Shown one piece after another: positions 4,627 to 55,589 of a stretch of DNA of 64,000 nucleotides. Each line of letters starts with the position of its first letter. Positions within the stretch are counted from its first letter, which is position 1. The position numbers and the translations under genes are program-made. The DNA comes from Eledone cirrhosa (Eukaryota), in NCBI GenBank assembly GCA_964016885.1, contig OZ024751.1:15438001-15502000 (forward strand). The letters run 5' to 3'. Below the pieces are notes generated by a model. That model saw only the letters and a program-made list of their open reading frames with translations. It was not told the origin of the DNA and did not search any database.

Positions 4627-5042
4627 TTTAGTGTAACGTCTACGTAACTATAACCACTAATTTGTATAAAGAAAAGGATAAGATATTTTTACATAACACC
4701 ATGTCGAATGAGAGTTAATTCCCATTACAAAGGTAATGACAAAACATAGGCAGTTTCTCGGAACGAGAATCAAATATAAGTCTTCATTTTGTAGTTCCAT
4801 GATATAATTGTTGTGAACAAATATTCTCGTACGTAATTAGGTATAGTCCAGATCCATAATAGTGGTTAGAGAAAAGTTAACATACTTGTCTTCAGTGTTG
4901 TCAGTTCGAAGGAAGGCGCCAAAAGAGAGAGAGCTTGATTGCGTTGCTGCTATTTATATCCTCTTTCTGGAAGTTACAATGAGGGTTCTAGACTTTTGGC
5001 GGAAAGTAACTCTAGCTACTTCCCTGTCTAGAGAGCGTTACA
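4627..5042 (-). mobile_element. Solo LTR inserted in CR1, with 4-bp TSD AGTT
   Basis: Minus strand runs TGTAACG...GTTACACTAAA. AGTT lies at 4623-4626 and 5043-5046. The uninterrupted target (ggagttaaacag) is visible in the CR1 copies at 7884 and 8801. It has a TATAAATA box and shares CGCTCTCTAGACAGG(G)AAGTAGCT with the LTR at 6049-6501. Confidence 0.85.
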
Positions 5043-5579
5043 AGTTAAACAGATGCATCTTGTTGCATAAACTGCGAGCATTTAAGGACAACAATTTGTA
5101 CCCTGCTAGCAGTTTACGATGGTATGTAGAGGATGACAGGTTGTTCTGGTTTAGTTTCCCAGAATTTAGTTTCCAGCTGACTAAAACTTTCATGTTGTGC
5201 TGAGTTCCGATTCAAGGAAGCTGCAGCACGTAGCTTTGGACGTACATCAGGTGATAGGCCTGGGCGTGTTCGGAAGGTAATCTGATTTTCACGCCCGGCT
5301 TTAACAGAGACCAGATGATATGAAATTGCCTCAGCAGGGTTCGAAAAAGACAGCCTAATGAGTCTGGGTTTTGGACCAGGTCGACCGAGGCGGAGAGCAC
5401 CCTTTGGGAGAACACAGCCTAGGTCTTTGGCTGAGCTGGCAGCAAATGCCTGAAGATCAGCCTTGTCTTCTGGTACCCTAATGGCAATTACTCCATGGAT
5501 AGCAGATTCCGCGGTCTTCTCAGTGTGCCCAGATCCGGCAAGAGGTACAGGGAGATTCTTTAGCAAGGCATTCCTATAA
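5043..5579 (-). mobile_element. CR1 ORF1 C-terminal part plus ORF2 start (continuation of the CR1 at 2903-4622)
   Basis: RLGRPGPKPRLIRLSF ORF1-type motif, followed by LLSLNARSLCNK (APE start) contiguous with 4620 across the LTR. Confidence 0.85.
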
Positions 5580-5729
5580 AAAAAAAGTAAGCGACCAACC
5601 GACCTATTGGCTGGTTGATCGCTTACTTTTTTTTCGTTTTTATTACAAATATGTACATATAATATTAATATTATCTCTAAGATATTACCAATTATATAAT
5701 TTAAGAATAAAAAAATTTATAAATTTTCA

Positions 5730-6501
5730 TTGCAAGATTCTGGTGATGGTACGTTTCTGTTTGAATTCATTAATCTTGCGTATTTCCTCCATCTGCATTC
5801 TCTGGTGTCGTTTTACTTTATCTGAATCGTCGTCTTCTCTGTCGCTGATTTCCAGTCTAAGGGTGTCCCGCTTCTATCTGGAGACGGAGTCCGAAGTCTG
5901 GTTCGTCTTTGTTGGTCGACTTGTTGGAGTTTTTCATACTCGTCTAAAATGTCTTTTTTTTTTTTTTTTTTTTAATATTATATACATCGTATACCTTTTC
6001 CCATTCGTTTTAAAAAAAAAAAAAAAAAATCACGTCGGGGGTCACCACTTTAGGAGATTAGATCGGTGTACATACAACATAAAAAAGACAGTAAATACCG
6101 GTGTGTGTTATAATAATGTTTTTACTTCATGGAAGTCAAAGGTATTAAATATTAAGGATTTGTTACCCGATGGTCATAACTCGAGGCTGAAGTTGGTAGA
6201 GAAAAGAAGAGATCTTTTCTAGCTGGTATTAACATCTTAAGCTCTCAGGCTGCAAGTTGCATTGTTCTTGGTAGCGAAGGATTATCAAAAAGGAATCATC
6301 ACAAGCTAAGGTCGCAGGTGTTACCACTTCAGAAATCAGGAGGCAAGAGGGAGATATTGTGGTAACCTGTTCCTTTTATAGGAGGTGACCGGAAGTGACC
6401 AACAGGGAGTCTGTCAATCCCAAAGGGAAGCAACTCCAGCTACTTCCTGTCTAGAGAGCGGTGATGAGATTGTCATGACCAGGGAGGCAACTCTTGCTAC
6501 A
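5730..6501 (-). mobile_element. Gypsy-like LTR retrotransposon 5' end: LTR 6049-6501, tRNA-Trp PBS, leader and possible gag start
   Basis: LTR runs TGTAGCA...CTCCTAAA, with TATAAAA near 6375. The PBS TGGTGACCCCCGACGTGAT (6029-6047) is complementary to the tRNA-Trp 3' end. Confidence 0.85.
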
Positions 6502-7139
6502 TACGTTTCTAATTCTGCTATAGTCATACTTGCTTTTAACTCTGTGTAAGGAATTAAAGCTGCTCTATGTTTAATTACTAATTGTATATATTCAGCATCG
6601 TGTTTCTTGTAGTAGGTTTTATCTATAGGATTTTCTGAACAATTTATGTAATGTATGAATGTTCTCGAGAATTTTTTAGATACTATTGGATTTATATCCC
6701 CTATTACTGGTGGATGATCCCCTTGTGCCATTGCTGCTGAACCCCCTGGTGATGGCCCTACGTGTGGATCCCCCATTGCTGGTGTTTCTACTATGCCACT
6801 ATCTTGTGATGTCGCTGCGTTCAATAGATCTTGATCTGATATATCGCAACTCTCTTCGTTTTTGTGTGATTGTTCTTGTTCTATTCTCCTCTTTTTTTCA
6901 GTAGGTGGCATTACAAAGTTTTTTCCTCTTACAATATTCCTTACTAAGAACGCCGATACTCCGCTACTTTTTTTACTACACTCGATTAGTTTGTTGTCAG
7001 CTTCTAATATAGTTATATCTTTTCTGTTGTAATCTAAATCGTGTTCTCTGCAGCACTTGTCTAATTCATTAACCGGTTTGTTGTTGTAATTGTTAGTGTA
7101 TGGTCCACAATAATTATAAGATGGTAAATGTAAAGGCAT
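6502..7139 (-). pseudogene. Endogenous parvovirus/densovirus capsid gene fragment (VP1 PLA2 domain plus start of the major capsid region)
   Basis: PLA2 Ca-loop and catalytic motifs (LPSYNYCGPY, DKCCREHDLDY, AD), KKRR NLS, a Gly/Ala-rich stretch, then KFSRTFIHY and IPY..L..SMT.AE resembling densovirus capsid strands. It is cut exactly at the LTR terminus (6501). Confidence 0.85.
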
Positions 7140-7143
7140 GATT

Positions 7144-7400
7144 ACTTACCGAGAGTTCTGCCAACATTGTTGCATCTCTGAGTTTCAAATTGTCGTAGCT
7201 CATCTTGGTGAGTAGCGAAGTATCGACGTTCTTCTTCTGGCGTGTAGTTCTGTTGTGGTAATTTGAATTGCGCGCCTTGATTTTTATACTGTTTTTAATG
7301 TTGACTATGCTTTTTATTTTGCCTACGTGTTCGTATTTTAAATTCTGCCTACGTAGCATTAATATTCCCGCTGTAATTGATATCTTCAATGTGATTGGAT
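7144..7400 (-). promoter_or_regulatory. Putative viral capsid promoter and leader exon
   Basis: CCAAT at 7394-7398, TATAAAAA at 7281-7288, ATG at 7203 opening 18 codons (MSYDNLKLRDATMLAELS) that end at a consensus donor G|GTAAGT (7149-7144) just before the PLA2 ATG at 7139. Confidence 0.55.
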
Positions 7401-7509
7401 AAGCTGCCTGCACTCTGCACTGCCCTTTTGGAAAGGAGACAAGCCGGTCGGTCGGGAGGGGGAGGTTACATTACACAGTTATAGCGTAAAGGCTCTTCAC
7501 GTTTGCCTA

Positions 7510-10500
7510 TCCGCAGATTCCGCGGTCTTCTCAGTGTGCCCAGATCCGGCAAGAGGTACATGGAGATTCTTTAGCAAGGCATTCCTATAAGACCCCTCAT
7601 TGTGGGGTCCAACCCGAATGCTTGCTTTTATTCCTGTTACTTCCCTTCTTAAAGCAGAAATCATTTGTTTCAATTCTGCAAAATCTGTACTAGTCAATTG
7701 ATGGAAGAAGTCCTTGGCAAACTGGATCAGTGTCTCAACGTACTGCTGCTGGGAGACTTTCACCTACCGAGGGCCACCTTCTCCCAGAAATGACACACTC
7801 AAACAGAGACAGACTGTCCTGGATCTCTGTAGGTGATGTCAGGGAGTTTTCTGAATCATCTCATCTCCGATGCTTCTGACGTAGGAGTTAAACAGATACA
7901 TCTTGTTGCATAAACTGCGAGCATTTAAGGACAACAATTTGTACCCTGCTAGCAGTTTATGATGGTGTGTAGAGGGTGGCAGGTTGTTCTGGTTTAGTTT
8001 CCCAGAGTTGTAGCAGTTTTTACATTGCCAGTTATTGTGGGTAGATCACACTCAGACCAGCTTGTATCTCTCTTCCACGTTTCACCAGCCTTGACAAACC
8101 TCCAGATCTGCCCATCATCACGCAGACTAAAACTTTCATGTTGTGCTGAGTTCCGATTCAAGGCAGCTGCAGCACGTAGCTTTGGATGTACATCAGGTGA
8201 TAGGCCTGGCTGTGTTCGGAAGTTAATCTGATTTTCACGCCCGGCTTTAACAGAGGCCAGATGATATGTAATTGCCTCAGCAGGGTTCGAAAAAGACAGC
8301 CTGATGAGTCTGGGTTTTGGACCCGGTCGACCAAGGCGGAGAGCACCCTTTGGGGGAACACAGCCTAGGTCTTTGGCTGAGCTGGCAGCAAATGCCTGAA
8401 GATCAGCCTTGTCCCCTGGTACCCCAATGGCAATCACTTCATGGGTAGCAGATTCCGCAGTCTTTTCAGTCTTTTCAGCAAGAGGTACAGGGAGATTCTT
8501 TAGCAAGGCATTCCGATAAGACCCCTCATTGTGGGGTCCAACCTGAATGCTTGCTTTTATTCCTTTTACTTCTCTTAAAGCAGATTGCAATTTTGCAAAA
8601 TTTGTACTGGTCAATTGATGGAAGAAGTCCTTGGCAAACTGGATCAGTGTCTCAACATACTGCTGCTGGGAGACTTTCACCTACCGAGGGCCACCTTCTC
8701 CCAGAAATGACACACTCAAACAGAGACAAACTGTCCTGGATCTCTGTAGGTGATGTCAGGGAGCTTTCTGAATCATCTCATCTCCGATGCTTCTGACGTA
8801 GGAGTTAAACAGATACATCTTGTTGCATAAACTGCGAGCATTTAAGGACAACAATTTGTACCCTGCTAGCAGTTTATGATGGTGTGTAGAGGGTGGCAGG
8901 TTGTTCTGGTTTAGTTTCTCAGAGTTGTAGCAGTTTTTACATTGCCAGTTATTGTGGGTAGATCACACTCAGACCAGCTTGTATCTCTCTTCCACGTTTC
9001 ACCAGCCTTGACAAACCTCCAGATCTGCCCATCATCACGCAGACTAAAACTTTCATGTTGTGCTGAGTTCCGATTCAAGGCAGCTGCAGCACGTAGCTTT
9101 GGATGTACATCAGGTGATAGGCCTGGCTGTGTTCGGAAGTTAATCTGATTTTTACGCCCGGCTTTAACAGAGGCCAGATGATATGTAATTGCCTCAGCAG
9201 GGTTCGAAAAAGACAGCCTGATAAGTCTGGGTTTTGGACCAGGTCGACCAAGGCGGAGAGCACCCTTTGGGGGAACACAGCCTAGGTCTTTGGCTGAGCT
9301 GGCAGCAAATGCCTGAAGATCAGCCTTGTCCCCTGGTACCCCAATGGCAATCACTTCATGGGTAGCAGATTCCGCAGTCTTTTCAGTCTTTTCAGCAAGA
9401 GGTACAGGGAGATTCTTTAGCAAGGCATTCCGATAAGACCCCTCATTGTGGGGTCCAACCTGAATGCTTGCTTTTATTCCTTTTACTTCTCTTAAAGCAG
9501 ATTGCAATTTTGCAAAATTTGTACTGGTCAATTGATGGAAGAAGTCCTTGGCAAACTGGATCAGTGTCTCAACGTACTGCTACTGGGAGACTTTCACCTA
9601 CCGAGGGCCACCTTCTCCCAGAAATGACACACTCAAACAGAGACAAACTGTCCTGGATCTCTGTAGGTGATGTCAGGGAGCTTTCTGAATCATCTCATCT
9701 CCGATGCTTCTGACGTAGGAGTTAAACAGATACATCTTGTTGCATAAACTGCGAGCATTTAAGGACAACAATTTGTACCCTGCTAGCAGTTTATGATGGT
9801 GTGTAGAGGGTGGCAGGTTGTTCTGGTTTAGTTACCCAGAGTTGTAGCAGTTTTTACATTGCCAGTTATTGTGGGTAGATCACACTCAGACCAGCTTGTA
9901 TCTCTCTTCCACGTTTCACCAGCCTTGACAAACCTCCAGATCTGCCCATCATCACGCAGACTAAAACTTTCATGTTGTGCTGAGTTCCGATTCAAGGCAG
10001 CTGCAGCACGTAGCTTTGGATGTACATCAGGTGATAGGCCTGGCTGTGTTCGGAAGTTAATCTGATTTTCACGCCCGGCTTTAACAGAGGCCAGATGATA
10101 TGTAATTGCCTCAGCAGGGTTCGAAAAAGACAGCCTGATGAGTCTGGGTTTTGGACCAGGTCGACCAAGGCGGAGAGCACCCTTTGGGGGAACACAGCCT
10201 AGGTCTTTGGCTGAGCTGGCAGCAAATGCCTGAAGATCAGCCTTGTCCCCTGGTACCCCAATGGCAATCACTTCATGGGTAGCAGATTCCGCAGTCTTTT
10301 CAGTCTTTTCAGCAAGAGGTACAGGGAGATTCTTTAGCAAGGCATTCCGATAAGACCCCTCATTGTGGGGTCCAACCTGAATGCTTGCTTTTATTCCTTT
10401 TACTTCTCTTAAAGCAGATTGCAATTTTGCAAAATTTGTACTGGTCAATTGATGGAAGAAGTCCTTGGCAAACTGGATCAGTGTCTCAACGTACTGCTGC

Positions 10501-11381
10501 TGGGAGACTTTCACCTACCGAGGGCCACCTTCTCCCAGAAATGACACACTCAAACAGAGACAAACTGTCCTGGATCTCTGTAGGTGATGTCAGGGAGCTT
10601 TCTGAATCATCTCATCTCCGATGCTTCTGACGTAGGAGTTAAACAGATACATCTTGTTGCATAAACTGCGAGCATTTAAGGACAACAATTTGTACCCTGC
10701 TAGCAGTTTATGATGGTATGTAGAGGATGACAGGTTGTTCTGGTTTAGTTACCCAAAGTATTTGCAGTTTTTTCATTGCCAGTTATTGTGGGTAGAGCGC
10801 ACTCAGACCAGCTGGTATCTCTCTTCCATGTTTCATCAGCCTTAACAAACCTCCAGATCAGCCCATTATCACGCAGACTAAAACTTTCATGTTGTGCTGA
10901 GTTCCGATTCAAGGCAGCTGCAGCACGTAGCTTTGGATGTACATCAGGTGATAGGCCTGGCCGTGTTCGGAAGTTAATCTGATTTTCACGCCCGGCTTTA
11001 ACAGAGGCCAGATGATATGAAATTGCCTCAGCAGGGTTCGAAAAAGACAGCCTAATGAATCTGGGTTTTGGACCAGGTCGACCGAGGCGGAGAGCACCCT
11101 TTGGGAGAACACAGCCTAGGTCTTTGGCTGAGCTGGCAGCAAATGCCTGAAGATCAGCCTTGTCTTCTGGTACCCCAATGGCAATTACTTCATGGGTAGC
11201 AGATTCCGCGGTCTTCTCCGTGTGCCCAGATCCGGCAAGAGGTACAGTGAGATACTTAAGCAAGGCATTCCTATAAGACCCCTCATTGTGGGGTCCAACC
11301 CGAATGCTTGCTTTTATTCCTGTTACTTCCTTTCTTAAAGCAGAAATCATTTGTTGCAATTCTGCAAAATCTGTACTGGTC
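7510..11381 (-). repeat. Tandem array of a 917-bp CR1 segment (ORF1 plus ORF2 start), about 4.2 copies
   Basis: ORF stops at 7994, 8911, 9828 and 10745 give an exact 917-bp period. Units are near-identical and match 5043-5579. Confidence 0.95.
7994..8680 (-). CDS. CR1 ORF1-like protein (228 aa; copies at 8911-9531, 9828-10514 and 10745-11381)
   Basis: Coiled-coil-like N-terminal part and RRM-like VIAIGVP...RLGRPGPKPRLIRLSF. Lies directly upstream of the APE start. Confidence 0.6.
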   Translation of the reverse strand: MKVSQQQYVETLIQFAKDFFHQLTSTNFAKLQSALREVKGIKASIQVGPHNEGSYRNALLKNLPVPLAEKTEKTAESATHEVIAIGVPGDKADLQAFAASSAKDLGCVPPKGALRLGRPGPKPRLIRLSFSNPAEAITYHLASVKAGRENQINFRTQPGLSPDVHPKLRAAAALNRNSAQHESFSLRDDGQIWRFVKAGETWKRDTSWSECDLPTITGNVKTATTLGN

Positions 11382-11917
11382 GATTTATATAGCTTCTTCC
11401 TATTATGCTCAATGTTATTAATGCTAGAGTTTATCACAAATAATGCATCGTCACGATGAAGTCCCCCTTTAAGGTGCGGAAAGCTAACATATAGTTCTTT
11501 CAAGAGGAACAGCCCAACAAGATTAGTTACCTGCGCCGAATCACTCGAACCCATTGTAACGTCAAAGTTGTTGGGTGTGTTTTTACGCGTCCAAAGTGTA
11601 TCTTCGAATTTGATGATAGTCCTACGGGCGGCTAGTATGACATCAATTTGGGGTCGCGTAAGACTAGACATTCGCATAGCCATCATTAAGGCTTTATTAA
11701 GGAGGATAGGTGAAATCGACGTGTAATAGGCATCTATATCAAACTCGATAAACCTACTAGACTCAAGCTTATTGATACCAGAGAACCAATCAATAACATC
11801 CTTAGTATTTCCCCATAGATTAAAATGAACCTTTTCCCTAACGGTAGGTATAATCAGGTCAAGGATTTTCTTACTAATTATAGCTATATCAGACTTAGAA
11901 GGACTGTTATGATCCTT
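11382..11917 (-). mobile_element. Penelope-like (Naiad-type) RT fragment
   Basis: SKSDIAIISKKILD, FIEFDIDAYY, DVTMGSSDSAQ and GLHRDD motifs, homologous to 15090-16140 and 18960-21240. Confidence 0.9.
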
Positions 11918-16615: not shown

Positions 16616-18950
16616 ATGCCTAACTTAATGCCTCTATAGTTTCCCCTATCTAGAGCATCCCCTTTACCCTTGTAGCAGTTAATGATGATGCTGCTACACC
16701 AGTCTTTCGGTATGACCCCATTCTGTATTACTTTGTTAACTATACGGGTGACCATAGTGTGTCCCACCATACCAGATGCCTTCAACATCTCAGCAACTAT
16801 CTCCGAAGGCCCAGCTGCCTTGCCTGTCTTCATATCTTTGATTGCCTTACTTATTATACTACCTTTAACTTGCACTGCTGGTCCTTCTATTGGATTGATT
16901 TGGGGCAGACTATCTTTTTCCCCATTTATTCTCCTCATTTAATAGTCTCTCGTAGTGACACTTCCAGGCTATCTTCTTATCAGTATCAGTGAGGGCAAGT
17001 ACACCATTATCATTACGGACACACTTCTCCCCGACAATATCACGATTTTCCTTGACACATTGTCTAGCAATCCTGAACACCTCATGTTTTTGGTCCTCAC
17101 GTTGTAGAACATGCTTGAACTTTCTATCCTCTGCTTCCCTTTTTGCAAGGTACACTTGTCTCCTAGCTTCTCTCCTGGCCACTTGATAGTGCTCTCTACT
17201 TCCCCCATCCTGCCATACTTTCCAAGCCTGCTTTTTGGCCTTGATTGTCTCTTCTACCTTACTGTTCCACCACCAAGTTACTCTCCTCCTGCCAATAGGT
17301 CTGCTCCAGCCACATATTTCATCCGTTGCTTTCAGCAGGTTCACTTTCAAGAATTGCCACTGTTCCTCTATATCGCACGTCTCTAATTGTTCTTCCTTAT
17401 TGTCAAAGGCATCAAGTAATAAGCTTTTAAATTTGTCACTGGCTATGGGGTCCTTCAACTTTCATATTCTTCTCCTCAAGGTTGGACTCCTCTGTCGTCG
17501 AGTACGTCTATTTCTGACTATGAGGTCACTAACTACTAACGTGTACATAGGTAGAACAGAATGAGATGCCATTGGTATACCGTAGGTAATTTGCCAAAAA
17601 AAAAAAAAATTGTCTCCGTTTGGAAAAATGTCTCCAACACAACAGAAAAGGAAAACAAAATCACTTATTTTTCTCTGTCAAACAACTGGACAGGAAAAAT
17701 AATGCATCCGGGACAATATGCAAAGGAGCGACTAACCGAGCGATGTCATTAATAAGGTATAGGCAGGGAATTTGAAACTAAAACCAACATGGCAGACTAT
17801 TTCACGCCAAAAACACTATTGATGGAGAAGAAAGCCGCCATCTTGTCATCCTCAACATTTTTAGCCAGAGAAGAGAGGAAAAAAAGAAAAGGAGAAAAAA
17901 AAGCAAAAACATTCGCACAATTGCTGTTTGTTTGTGTGTAAATAACTTTGGGTGTTCGTTTTGCACATATGAAGAGTTTGATGTTAAGTGTTACAGAGAA
18001 ATATGTTTAGATCGGTCAATACAGCCATATCAGAATCAAGTGTGTTGTTCTGTATTAAATGTTTTTTTTTCTCTTTTTTTTTTTATATACACATGGTACT
18101 ATTTCCCATTCTTTTTAAAAAAAAAAAACAAAAAAAAAAACGTCAGGTCACCAATTTAGGAGATTAGTATCAGTGTACATATATATAATATCAAGAATGA
18201 CAATAAATGCAGGTGTGTGTTGTGACAAGGTTTTACTTCACAGAAGTCAAATAAATTAATATAAATAATTTGTTACCACATGTAGATGTTCAGTTGGTCA
18301 CAACTCCCAGACTGGAGTGTGTAGAGAAGAACAGAAATCTTCTCTTGGAGGTGTTTAAGTATTTCTTTAGGCTGCCGGAATTCTTCTTCTTGCGGTCGAA
18401 GGAAGTGAGACAGGAGTCATCTCTTGACAAGGTCTCAGGTGTTCTTGTCCCTTCGGAGTTCAGGATGTGAGAGAGGCTTATGCCTTGGCAGCCCTCAAAT
18501 ATATAGTCCCCAGGGGGATGCAACTCCATTTAGTACATGAATCTGCCTATGGGGGTCGCGCCTGTCGCAAAGGGACGTAACACCTATACGTGCTGAGTTA
18601 CGACCGTCGTAAAGGGACGCAACTCCTATACGTGCTGAGTCACAGCCGTAAGGGGCTGCTACAGATATAATCTATCTGGCTGGCATGTTCCCCTGATCTA
18701 TAGGTGATCAAGTGGTTTTCACATTTTTTGAAGTTTGTGTTACAGATAGTTAGGCTATTTGCGTCACAGAATTCCAGGATTCTGAAGCCTTCCTCATTTC
18801 TATTTCCAACCCCATAGCCTCCATGGATTCCATCATAGCCATCACTATGTTGTCCAACGTGACCGTTTAGATCGTCAGCAATAATTAAGTAGTCGCTGTC
18901 GGTTATTTGGGAAGTAGTGTGCATTAGCATCTCATAGAACCTGTCCTTTA
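16616..18950 (-). mobile_element. RTE LINE fragment (same family as 1-2902), split by an LTR element
   Basis: APE part at 18664-18950 (GHVGQH...SQIDYI), then LVVSDL...GNYRGIKL at 16616-17540. Confidence 0.85.
17540..18663 (-). mobile_element. Gypsy-like LTR element 5' end: LTR 18155-18663, degenerate Trp PBS and leader
   Basis: TGTAGCAGC...CTAATCTCCTAAA, one base, then TGGTGACCTGACG (18141-18153). U5 and the poly-T leader are similar to 5950-6150. Confidence 0.8.
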
Positions 18951-53842: not shown

Positions 53843-53916
53843 GTTTTTTTCTTCTCGTGCAATGGCCATAATCGATAACGAGGGGGCAGCCTCCGTGTAT
53901 GTATGTATGTATGTAT

Positions 53917-55589
53917 GGATCTGTATCAGGTTTTTGTCGATCTGACAAAGGCTTTCGATACTGTCAACAGAGAGGCATTATGGAAGGTTCTCCAGAAACT
54001 TGGTTGCCCTGATAAGTTCCTTGCTTTAGTTAGGTCTTTCCATGACGACATGAAGGCTTGGGTTAATGTCGGAGGTAACATGTCGGAGCCTATCTCAGTA
54101 AAAAATGGAGTGAAACAGGGGGATATTCCAGCACCGACCCTGTTTGCCATATACTTTGCAATGGTTTTCTGTATTGCATTCAGGAATTGCGAGCATGGTG
54201 TTTACATCCGATATCGAACCTCAGGCAGCATATTTAACACCAGGCGCTTTGCTGCGAAGACAAAAGTATTTACATCAATCATAAGAGACCTCTTGTATGC
54301 AGATGATTGCGATCTTGTAGCGCACACAGAGAGTGATATGCAGCACATTTTGAATGCATTTTCTGACGCTTGCACTGCCCTGGGTTTGACTGTCAGTCTC
54401 AAGAAAACCGTCGTCATGTACCAACCTGCCCCTAGTAAGCAGTACACTGAACCAAACATCTATGTGTATGGCAAACGACTTGGAGTGGTTGATCAGTTTG
54501 TCTACCTGGGAAGCACTGTCAATCGATACGGCAACCTTGACAGTGAAATCTCACTTAGGATTAGGAAAGCAAGTGATGCTTTCGGAAAGCTAGAAAGGCG
54601 ACTCTGGGGTCGGCGAGACATATGCAGGAGGACAAAGGTAAAGGTGTACAGGGCATGTGTACTCTCTTGTCTTCTCTATGCCTGCGAGACCTGGGTCACA
54701 TATCGACACCACCTTAAGCAATTGGAGCGTTTCCATCAGATGTGTTTCAGACGGATCCATGGCGTTCACTGGAGGGACCACATCAGTGATGTCGAGATTT
54801 TGGAAAGCTCTATGTGTGACAGTATAGAAGCTCTTGTGCTTAAGCAACGACTCCGTTGGAGTGGTCACCTTGCCAGGATGAAGGATTCTAGAATACCAAA
54901 ACAACTCTTCTATGGAGAGTTGGTTAAAGGAAAACGACCGCCACATAAACCAAAAAAGAGGTATAAGGATTCCTTGAAAGCCTCTCTGAAAGACGCTAAC
55001 ATCTCTGCTGATACATGGGAAAATATTGCTGCTGATCGTAATAAATGGAGAAAGACTGTATATGAGGGAAAAGTTGCCTTTGAGGCATCTCGAATCGCAC
55101 ACGAGAAAGTAAAGCGGGACGTGAGGAAGGGCATTGCTGTTGCACTTCCAGACGGCGAGGGTCCTCCTATGGTGCTGACATGCAGCGTCTGTGCGAGACT
55201 CTGCCTAAGCAAAGCTGGACTCGAAAGTCATCTTCGCAGTCATAAAGTAAGACCAGTGGCTGACTACCAGGCTGCTGTTGGAGATGCTACTCATCATGCT
55301 TGCCAAACATGTGGTAGAGAATGTAAATCAGCAGGAGGGCTCAAGCGACATGCAAAAGTACACGAACTCCAACCACAGCCGACTATTCCCAGTGAATGTT
55401 TTGGTTGCCGACTCTGTGCAAGACATTTTAGATCATTGGCTGGGCTAAAAAGCCACATTCGATCGCAGCACTGTTAGTTGTTATCGTGTGTGTGTGTGTG
55501 TAGATATGCTTATGTGCGTGCGTGTGTGTGTATATATATATATGAATATGTATATTATTATTGTTGTTGTCGTTATTATTATTATTGCA

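Follow-up and report, generated by a model that had tools for sequence, protein, structure and literature searches.

All parvoviruses are described as having the NS gene on the left and the VP (capsid) gene on the right in the available text of PMC11357303, which adds that Hamaparvovirinae and the Penaeus monodon metallodensovirus (PmMDV) lack a phospholipase A2 (PLA2) domain and that PmMDV has no assigned subfamily and a "unique genome organization," not spelled out in that text. Where it is present, parvoviral PLA2 is characterized by a YXGXG calcium loop and an HD dyad, according to the accessible part of PMC10267136. The segmented densovirus of Acheta domesticus (AdSDV) belongs to a hamaparvovirus-type capsid lineage with PLA2 and has its VP gene beside the left end, as the lineage studied here would, and differs from it in being bipartite, with PLA2 as a separate nonstructural open reading frame (ORF) downstream of VP (PMC10267136, same part). 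For mollusks and tubeworms, Francois et al. listed an endogenous piece of NS next to a transposon in Octopus bimaculoides, a transcript of VP in Octopus vulgaris, and NS transcripts in Lamellibrachia, all of them short fragments for which the portion of that 2016 paper available to us (PMC5013282) gives no gene order or splice layout. Here, we analyzed a parvoviral VP fragment in a 64,000-nucleotide (nt) stretch of Eledone cirrhosa (assembly GCA_964016885.1, contig OZ024751.1, positions 15,438,001 to 15,502,000), called the window below, to which all positions refer. We consider it probable, on sequence grounds, that positions 6502 to 7512 (minus strand) are the left end of a parvovirus genome with the capsid gene first, in which VP is predicted to lie within an intron of NS1.

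The 5' part of the VP1 gene occupies positions 6502 to 7139 (minus strand) and has 212 open codons, ended by a long terminal repeat (LTR). The stop-to-stop ORF spans positions 6414 to 7145 with an ATG at 7139, and the VP frame continues for 29 codons inside the LTR, where the stop at 6414 ends it. When the sequence from 6502 to 7512 was shuffled 2000 times, an open frame of this length never arose. The approximately 212 uninterrupted codons reported in an earlier note on this DNA were confirmed (7139 to 6504, minus strand). That note had placed the gene at 6502 to 7510; the fragment does begin at 6502 and runs to 7512, but it is coding only from 6502 to 7139, with upstream DNA from 7140 to 7512. 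Residues 2 to 71 of VP (positions 6927 to 7136, minus strand) match the PLA2 domain PF08398 with an E value of 5.1e-15, passing the cut-off, and both the YCGPY calcium loop (amino acids [aa] 10 to 14) and the HD dyad (aa 33 and 34) are intact, so the parvoviral PLA2 signature read there earlier was confirmed. The best PDB sequence matches of the PLA2 part are parvoviral VP1 proteins, including 9CUZ (E value of 8e-6), in which the fifth loop residue is aromatic. The loop had been thought unusual; however, its fifth residue is F in seven, W in one, and G in one of nine PLA2-bearing relatives, and with an aromatic residue at the loop end in 8 of the 9, YCGPY is by sequence comparison typical of the lineage and not an oddity. 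The window domain has the HD dyad and, in place of YXGXG, the loop YCGPY; its catalytic activity is putative. The region was modeled as helical, with a predicted local distance difference test score (pLDDT) of 60 to 80 across aa 11 to 90. A KKRR basic cluster (aa 82 to 85; positions 6885 to 6896, minus strand) is a candidate nuclear localization signal by sequence. The capsid body, from Met122 on (positions 6504 to 6776, minus strand), contains a glycine-rich stretch, the first strands, and a conserved helix motif. Relatives without PLA2 start near the position of Met122, which is likely the start of the major capsid protein.

We searched the last 111 residues of VP, a query free of PLA2, among 1.84 billion representative proteins and obtained 10 matches, of which 9 are capsid-like and 1, the repeat protein P0005, is a chance match. 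All nine capsid-like matches have the glycine-rich and helix motifs, PLA2 stands in front in five, and two are full length, at 525 and 579 aa. The contigs that carry six of the nine span 99 kb to 1.1 Mb, that of P0003 has 4,017 nt, and the sole named match comes from the tubeworm Lamellibrachia satsuma, the source of both named relatives that were found (KAI0226319.1 and KAI0231277.1). We also built a profile from five PLA2-free stretches of relatives and searched 177,635 PDB sequences with it at an E value of ≤10. Only three sequences were matched, with E values of 0.002 to 0.007, and all three are parvovirus capsids without PLA2: those of PmMDV (Metalloincertoparvovirus, PDB 6WH3; 0.0018), Syngnathus scovelli chapparvovirus (SsChPV, 9NEK; 0.0038), and Penaeus stylirostris densovirus (PstDV, or IHHNV, 3N7X; 0.0066). 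Because the profile columns matched in PDB lie mostly just past the break in the window sequence, the link between the window and these capsids goes via the relatives. One of these, the VP of metagenome locus L002 (below), matches the window VP with an E value of 2e-8 and PmMDV, the best named capsid match, with an E value of 1.9e-8. Matches of a P0003 model in BFVD were mostly parvoviral, and in ESM Atlas P0003 was close to parvoviral VP1 clusters (0.94), with only leads below 0.9 for the C-terminal 110 aa of the window VP. A Foldseek search of PDB with low-confidence AlphaFold models returned nothing at an E value of ≤0.001, a word-index protein search with the capsid region against longer proteins gave 0 matches, a further such search gave P0003 alone, and no relative was found in scans of viral contigs and of genome contigs.

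By sequence profile, the C-terminal part belongs to a single jelly-roll capsid homologous to parvoviral VP, which identifies the VP fragment as a parvoviral VP1. The earlier note had read capsid-like motifs here and had named, as the result that would refute its reading, best profile matches to Polinton/adintovirus or cellular PLA2 together with a C-terminal part lacking capsid homology; this was checked, and capsid homology was found. The same homology bears on an alternative that we find barely credible, in which the PLA2 gene would be of Polinton/adintovirus, CRESS-virus, or cellular origin. PF08398 is also present in one Cressdnaviricota capsid cluster, and the YCGP and CCxxHD cysteines recall cellular PLA2 (weak Pfam matches), but the PLA2-free part is homologous both to parvovirus capsids and to capsids adjoining Parvo_NS1, so this explanation is largely refuted, on capsid homology and not on a direct comparison with adintovirus PLA2. 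Within PDB, the capsid is by sequence nearer to Hamaparvovirinae and Metalloincertoparvovirus capsids than to those of Densovirinae, and the label "densovirus-like" given to the gene before was not upheld. PmMDV itself differs in having no PLA2 and a capsid of 369 aa, whereas VPs of the lineage are 445 to 588 aa long and the window VP has PLA2; SsChPV and PstDV differ in that their own VPs lack PLA2 and their genomes have NS left and VP right. The VP1 proteins of Parvovirinae and Densovirinae (adeno-associated virus, bufavirus) resemble the window VP in having PLA2 fused ahead of the capsid and gave the best PDB matches of that domain, but the capsid body of the lineage matches none of them after removal of PLA2. 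A VP without PLA2 is a criterion for Hamaparvovirinae; the window VP and nine relatives carry the PLA2 motif, and metagenome loci L001 and L002 do not. Densovirinae are delimited by NS1/SF3 phylogeny, and Metalloincertoparvovirus by 35 to 40% NS1 identity to PmMDV plus a common genome organization.

These two loci, found among 103 candidate stretches in a scan of metagenome contigs, revealed the order of the genes. L001 is 2,582 nt long and encodes a VP of 448 aa, and L002 is 3,471 nt long and encodes a VP of 445 aa, both without PLA2. Their capsids are homologous to the lineage VP (tblastn E values of 3e-50 and 6e-47, respectively) and align along their length with both P0003 and P0010, as well as with the C-terminal part of the window VP. 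In both contigs, an NS1 frame lies directly 3' of VP on the same strand, and in L002 this downstream ORF is Parvo_NS1 (PF01057, E value of 3e-18); VP precedes NS1 in L001 and L002, which breaks the rule of NS left and VP right. The NS1 frame opens immediately behind the VP stop and has its HUH motif (aa 81 and 84 in the two contigs) ahead of the first methionine (aa 110 and 113). Between the donor and the HUH motif, the strongest pyrimidine-rich AG follows the VP stop by 17 to 18 nt in both contigs, with pyrimidines at 12 of 14 positions (10 and 9 in the runners-up), and the sole GTAAGT upstream of VP sits 25 nt ahead of the VP ATG in both, with the same phase as the acceptor. The leader exon starts at an ATG in L001, and the L002 contig begins within the exon. 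From these signals, VP is predicted to lie inside an NS1 intron in L001 and L002. Circular permutation of the two contigs was considered as another source of this order and was ruled out, as there is no terminal redundancy and no space for genome ends between the VP stop and NS1. PmMDV may share the capsid-first layout, though it is probably NS-first. We found no description of a capsid-first parvovirus in a literature search that was thin on subscription papers, and the available parts of PMC6950620 and PMC12115719 contain nothing on gene order.

Several other properties of these relatives were recorded. Parvoviral genomes are linear single-stranded DNA of 4 to 6 kb that ends in hairpins; the contigs of L001, L002, and P0003 are 2.6, 3.5, and 4.0 kb long, respectively. 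A second frame of approximately 115 to 120 codons, with its ATG in the leader region and overlapping the VP start (L001, 601 to 954; L002, 3 to 368), possibly encodes an auxiliary protein. The left end of L001 has a 98-nt direct repeat (3 to 100 and 257 to 354) together with a short inverted repeat, a pattern to be expected close to the terminus of a parvovirus genome. PF16530 weakly matches the VPs of both loci. The observed/expected CpG ratio of L002 is 0.15 (strong depletion), compared with 0.68 for L001 and 0.69 for the window VP, pointing to different hosts or methylation pressure. Elsewhere, P0010, P0012 to P0016, and P0020, as well as P0017 to P0019 and P0023, are full-length or partial VP copies whose longest contigs agree in length (1,139,406 and 835,705 nt), which suggests clusters of the virus's genes in another host.

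In the window, a predicted first exon of NS1 lies at 7150 to 7203 (minus strand), with an ATG plus 18 codons and then a GTAAGT donor at 7149. This G/GTAAGT donor stands 10 nt ahead of the VP ATG (chance of approximately 0.8% per 30 nt), and a TATA-like box, by consensus match only, is found at 7283 to 7288 (minus strand), 85 nt ahead of the leader ATG. The last 10 codons of the window leader resemble the leaders of L001 and L002; among 79,065 stop-free 10-mers in the window, 9 reach as high a score, and the chance of such a likeness is approximately 1e-3 once the choice of frame and offset is allowed for. The sequence from 7204 to 7512 (minus strand) is noncoding DNA of the same low-copy family, covered by diverged contigs up to approximately 7514; its frames have no Pfam match, and one contig of run X2 contains an opposite-strand joint of 7465 and 7514. 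This segment likely represents the left end of the virus with its promoter. By analogy with L001 and L002, we infer that VP came before NS1 in the window copy as well, and a capsid-first left end would mean that no NS1 is to be expected ahead of this VP. The earlier statement that no NS1 gene is visible thus holds for the NS1 helicase but would need amending for a likely first exon.

The same upstream DNA can be read under an ordinary layout, with NS1 on the left and VP on the right, in which positions 7140 to 7512 would be the tail of NS1 or the VP promoter, NS1 would have been cut at 7512, and the donor and leader likeness would be due to chance. The available text of PMC11357303 gives this layout for every classified parvovirus, the capsid-first contigs are distant relatives, and a 50-codon frame ends right ahead of the VP ATG. 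However, that frame is closed upstream by a stop, no upstream frame resembles NS1, and the TATA box, ATG exon, and donor of the window are placed as in L001 and L002; a fold-back at 7465/7514, as at a genome end, points the same way, weakly, from a single contig. We regard the ordinary layout as unlikely. Origin from a segment carrying VP alone in a bipartite parvovirus, with a genome end directly before VP and NS1 elsewhere, would likewise account for VP beside the left end, and AdSDV, a hamaparvovirus with an acquired PLA2, does have NS and VP on separate segments (PMC10267136, part available). Both relatives with readable context have VP and NS1 on one molecule, though, and AdSDV PLA2 is a separate ORF behind VP while that of the window is fused in front, so a bipartite genome seems quite improbable.

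The stretch is present in three runs of one sample; restriction site-associated DNA (RAD) run X4 has no VP coverage. At 80% likeness, 92 and 94 contigs match the stretch, with a summed depth of approximately 60 to 135 over VP versus 5 to 18 per contig. As many as 10 contigs differ at a single site, and the host copies show several indels as well as internal deletions. On a rough reading, there are about ten diverged relatives in the host data, depth being no measure of copy number, and some of them could be nonintegrated virus. Forty differences were listed, of which 14 outside the ORF were dropped, with 179 further rows outside the sample; among the 26 inside the ORF, 16 fall on third codon positions and 14 are synonymous, versus 20% expected (P of 1.5e-4). 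This excess suits copies from several viral strains more than the decay of one insertion. Some contigs continue beyond 6501 to 6505 with letters unlike the LTR, and near-identical contigs of the window stretch occur in one sample; among the pieces listed, none spans 6501/6502 or 7512/7513. With no stop in 212 codons and flanking 78-bp repeats that are 77/78 identical, the junction looks young. The recent germ line integration proposed before fits the endogenous setting, a 64-kb window of host type, and the young-looking junction, but about ten diverged relatives do not fit a lone event. An open frame, an intact HD dyad, its own TATA box, and a stop within the LTR could also describe a host-kept gene, either a domesticated phospholipase or a capsid-derived restriction factor ending in the LTR. 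We hold this to be highly improbable, given a setting that is a patchwork of fused transposon pieces, related copies with indels and internal deletions, and the young appearance of the junctions.

Several points weigh against a capsid-first left end in the window. L001 and L002 share 75% nucleotide identity and are not independent; they are also distant from the window VP (approximately 30% identity over 100 aa), lie outside its branch in a tree of 13 rows from which P0004 and P0007 were excluded, and lack PLA2. Gene order was read in these two, which are less close to the window VP than the PLA2-bearing P0002, P0003, and P0010. The splice joint is a prediction from sequence. The leader likeness covers 10 residues only, with an anchoring picked after the likeness had been seen, and the donor is in phase 0 in the window versus phase 2 in L001 and L002. 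By tblastn, an NS1 body or helicase is absent from the 64-kb window, and the window copy has no NS1 body linked to it. Fold modeling gave weak results (pLDDT of 36 and 51; best VIA Z of 5.8), and the sample of 26 differences is biased to well-supported sites, with the 179 further rows outside it.

The VP gene is cut by the 5' LTR of a high-copy LTR retroelement at 6048 to 6501 (minus strand), identified by copy comparison and RAD reads. A second LTR copy at 18057 to 18663 is approximately 70% identical and has the same first six bases, and 288 RAD reads from further copies of the LTR diverge from the window sequence at 6502; the shared start and these reads make the LTR edge exact, with its first base at 6501. 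Next to the LTR are a primer-binding site at 6030 to 6047 (minus strand), presumably of the tRNA-Trp type and partly retained in the second copy at approximately 18140, and a multicopy leader at 5804 to 6029 (minus strand) with T18/A18 runs. A single LTR, the primer-binding site, and part of the leader are all that remain of the element, and by tblastn of the window, the rest of VP is absent beyond the LTR. Thus, the exact truncation by an LTR claimed earlier is right as to the edge, but with one LTR only and no VP remainder on the far side, this was not a clean insertion. A 37-nt piece at 5001 to 5037, 1.4 kb away, is 89% like the LTR part at 6425 to 6460, and no tRNA genes were found in the window.

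The inserted block terminates in a 56-nt hairpin (5579 to 5634; z of -8.6, 0 of 200 shuffles), which may be the viral right end or part of the retroelement. One contig of run X2 bridges junction 5579/5580. The hairpin matched no Rfam family at the gathering score, with one subthreshold microRNA-shaped match. On the minus strand its mismatches form G-T pairs, its GACC/AACC repeats resemble a GACC repeat at 7446 to 7454, and an AATAAA lies at 5644, just before the hairpin, which may be a viral right end. Considered as a viral right end with the tail of NS1, positions 5580 to 5800 gave no tblastn match to the NS1 tail of L002 and are not covered by the diverged copies. The LTR-plus-virus block (5580 to 7512) is flanked by 78-bp direct repeats of LINE (long interspersed nuclear element) ORF1-like DNA at 5502 to 5579 and 7513 to 7590, for which the next best copy is 74/78 identical. 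The right repeat opens a tandem array of LINE ORF1-like DNA at 7513 to 11388, with a 917-bp unit in approximately 4.2 copies that are 91 to 96% identical, and the array is joined at 11388 to a Penelope-like reverse transcriptase (RT) piece within a single 405-codon frame.

In the neighborhood, all eight recognizable transposon fragments in 1 to 13.7 kb are on the minus strand, so the shared orientation reported earlier holds across that interval, and those in 14 to 21 kb are mixed, with the boundary picked post hoc. The parvoviral copy may be archived in a strand-biased region of the PIWI-interacting RNA (piRNA) type and may have a part in silencing; a unistrand piRNA cluster is defined by transposon fragments on one strand that give rise to piRNAs. 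Positions 1 to 21000 consist of tightly fused retroelement pieces, with higher GC and fewer microsatellites than the remainder. They include a LINE ORF2 frame of 931 codons at 147 to 2942, which encodes an endonuclease, RT, and, at the C terminus, a PHD finger; farther away, a 532-codon frame at 53879 to 55477 encodes RT and then several C2H2 zinc fingers.

In the mechanism that we propose, one left promoter would serve both genes. Unspliced RNA would yield VP1, with PLA2 and capsid, and the shorter major capsid protein from Met122, through leaky or alternative starts for VP, and in spliced RNA the short leader exon would be connected with an NS1 body located behind VP; in the window, this body would have been lost beyond the LTR. 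Parvoviruses are not known to encode an integrase, and viral DNA would have reached the germ line through host repair, with related viruses entering several times. The LTR insertion and deletion would be later than viral uptake or concurrent with it, and the window copy would be a nonreplicating relic with a frame kept open by youth and not by host upkeep. More broadly, these sequences may represent an unclassified, widespread lineage of marine invertebrate parvoviruses that has its capsid gene nested in an NS1 intron, gained or lost PLA2 on a PmMDV/hamaparvovirus-like capsid, repeatedly entered the germ line of this host, and may be archived in piRNA-type regions; we consider the chances that this broader picture will hold to be about even.

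Invertebrate genomes commonly contain parvoviral fragments, and octopus and tubeworm cases were already listed in 2016 (PMC5013282, in the part available). What is new is the capsid-first layout, VP then NS1, in the relatives. The approximately ten diverged copies in the host make the gene order checkable in the existing assembly. A lineage with and without PLA2 on homologous capsids provides a natural comparison for the origin of PLA2-less parvoviruses. If true, the placement of VP within an NS1 intron would run counter to a rule that is given for every classified parvovirus, and the switch from early to late expression would be made by splicing rather than promoter order, with one splice choice deciding between capsid and replicase.

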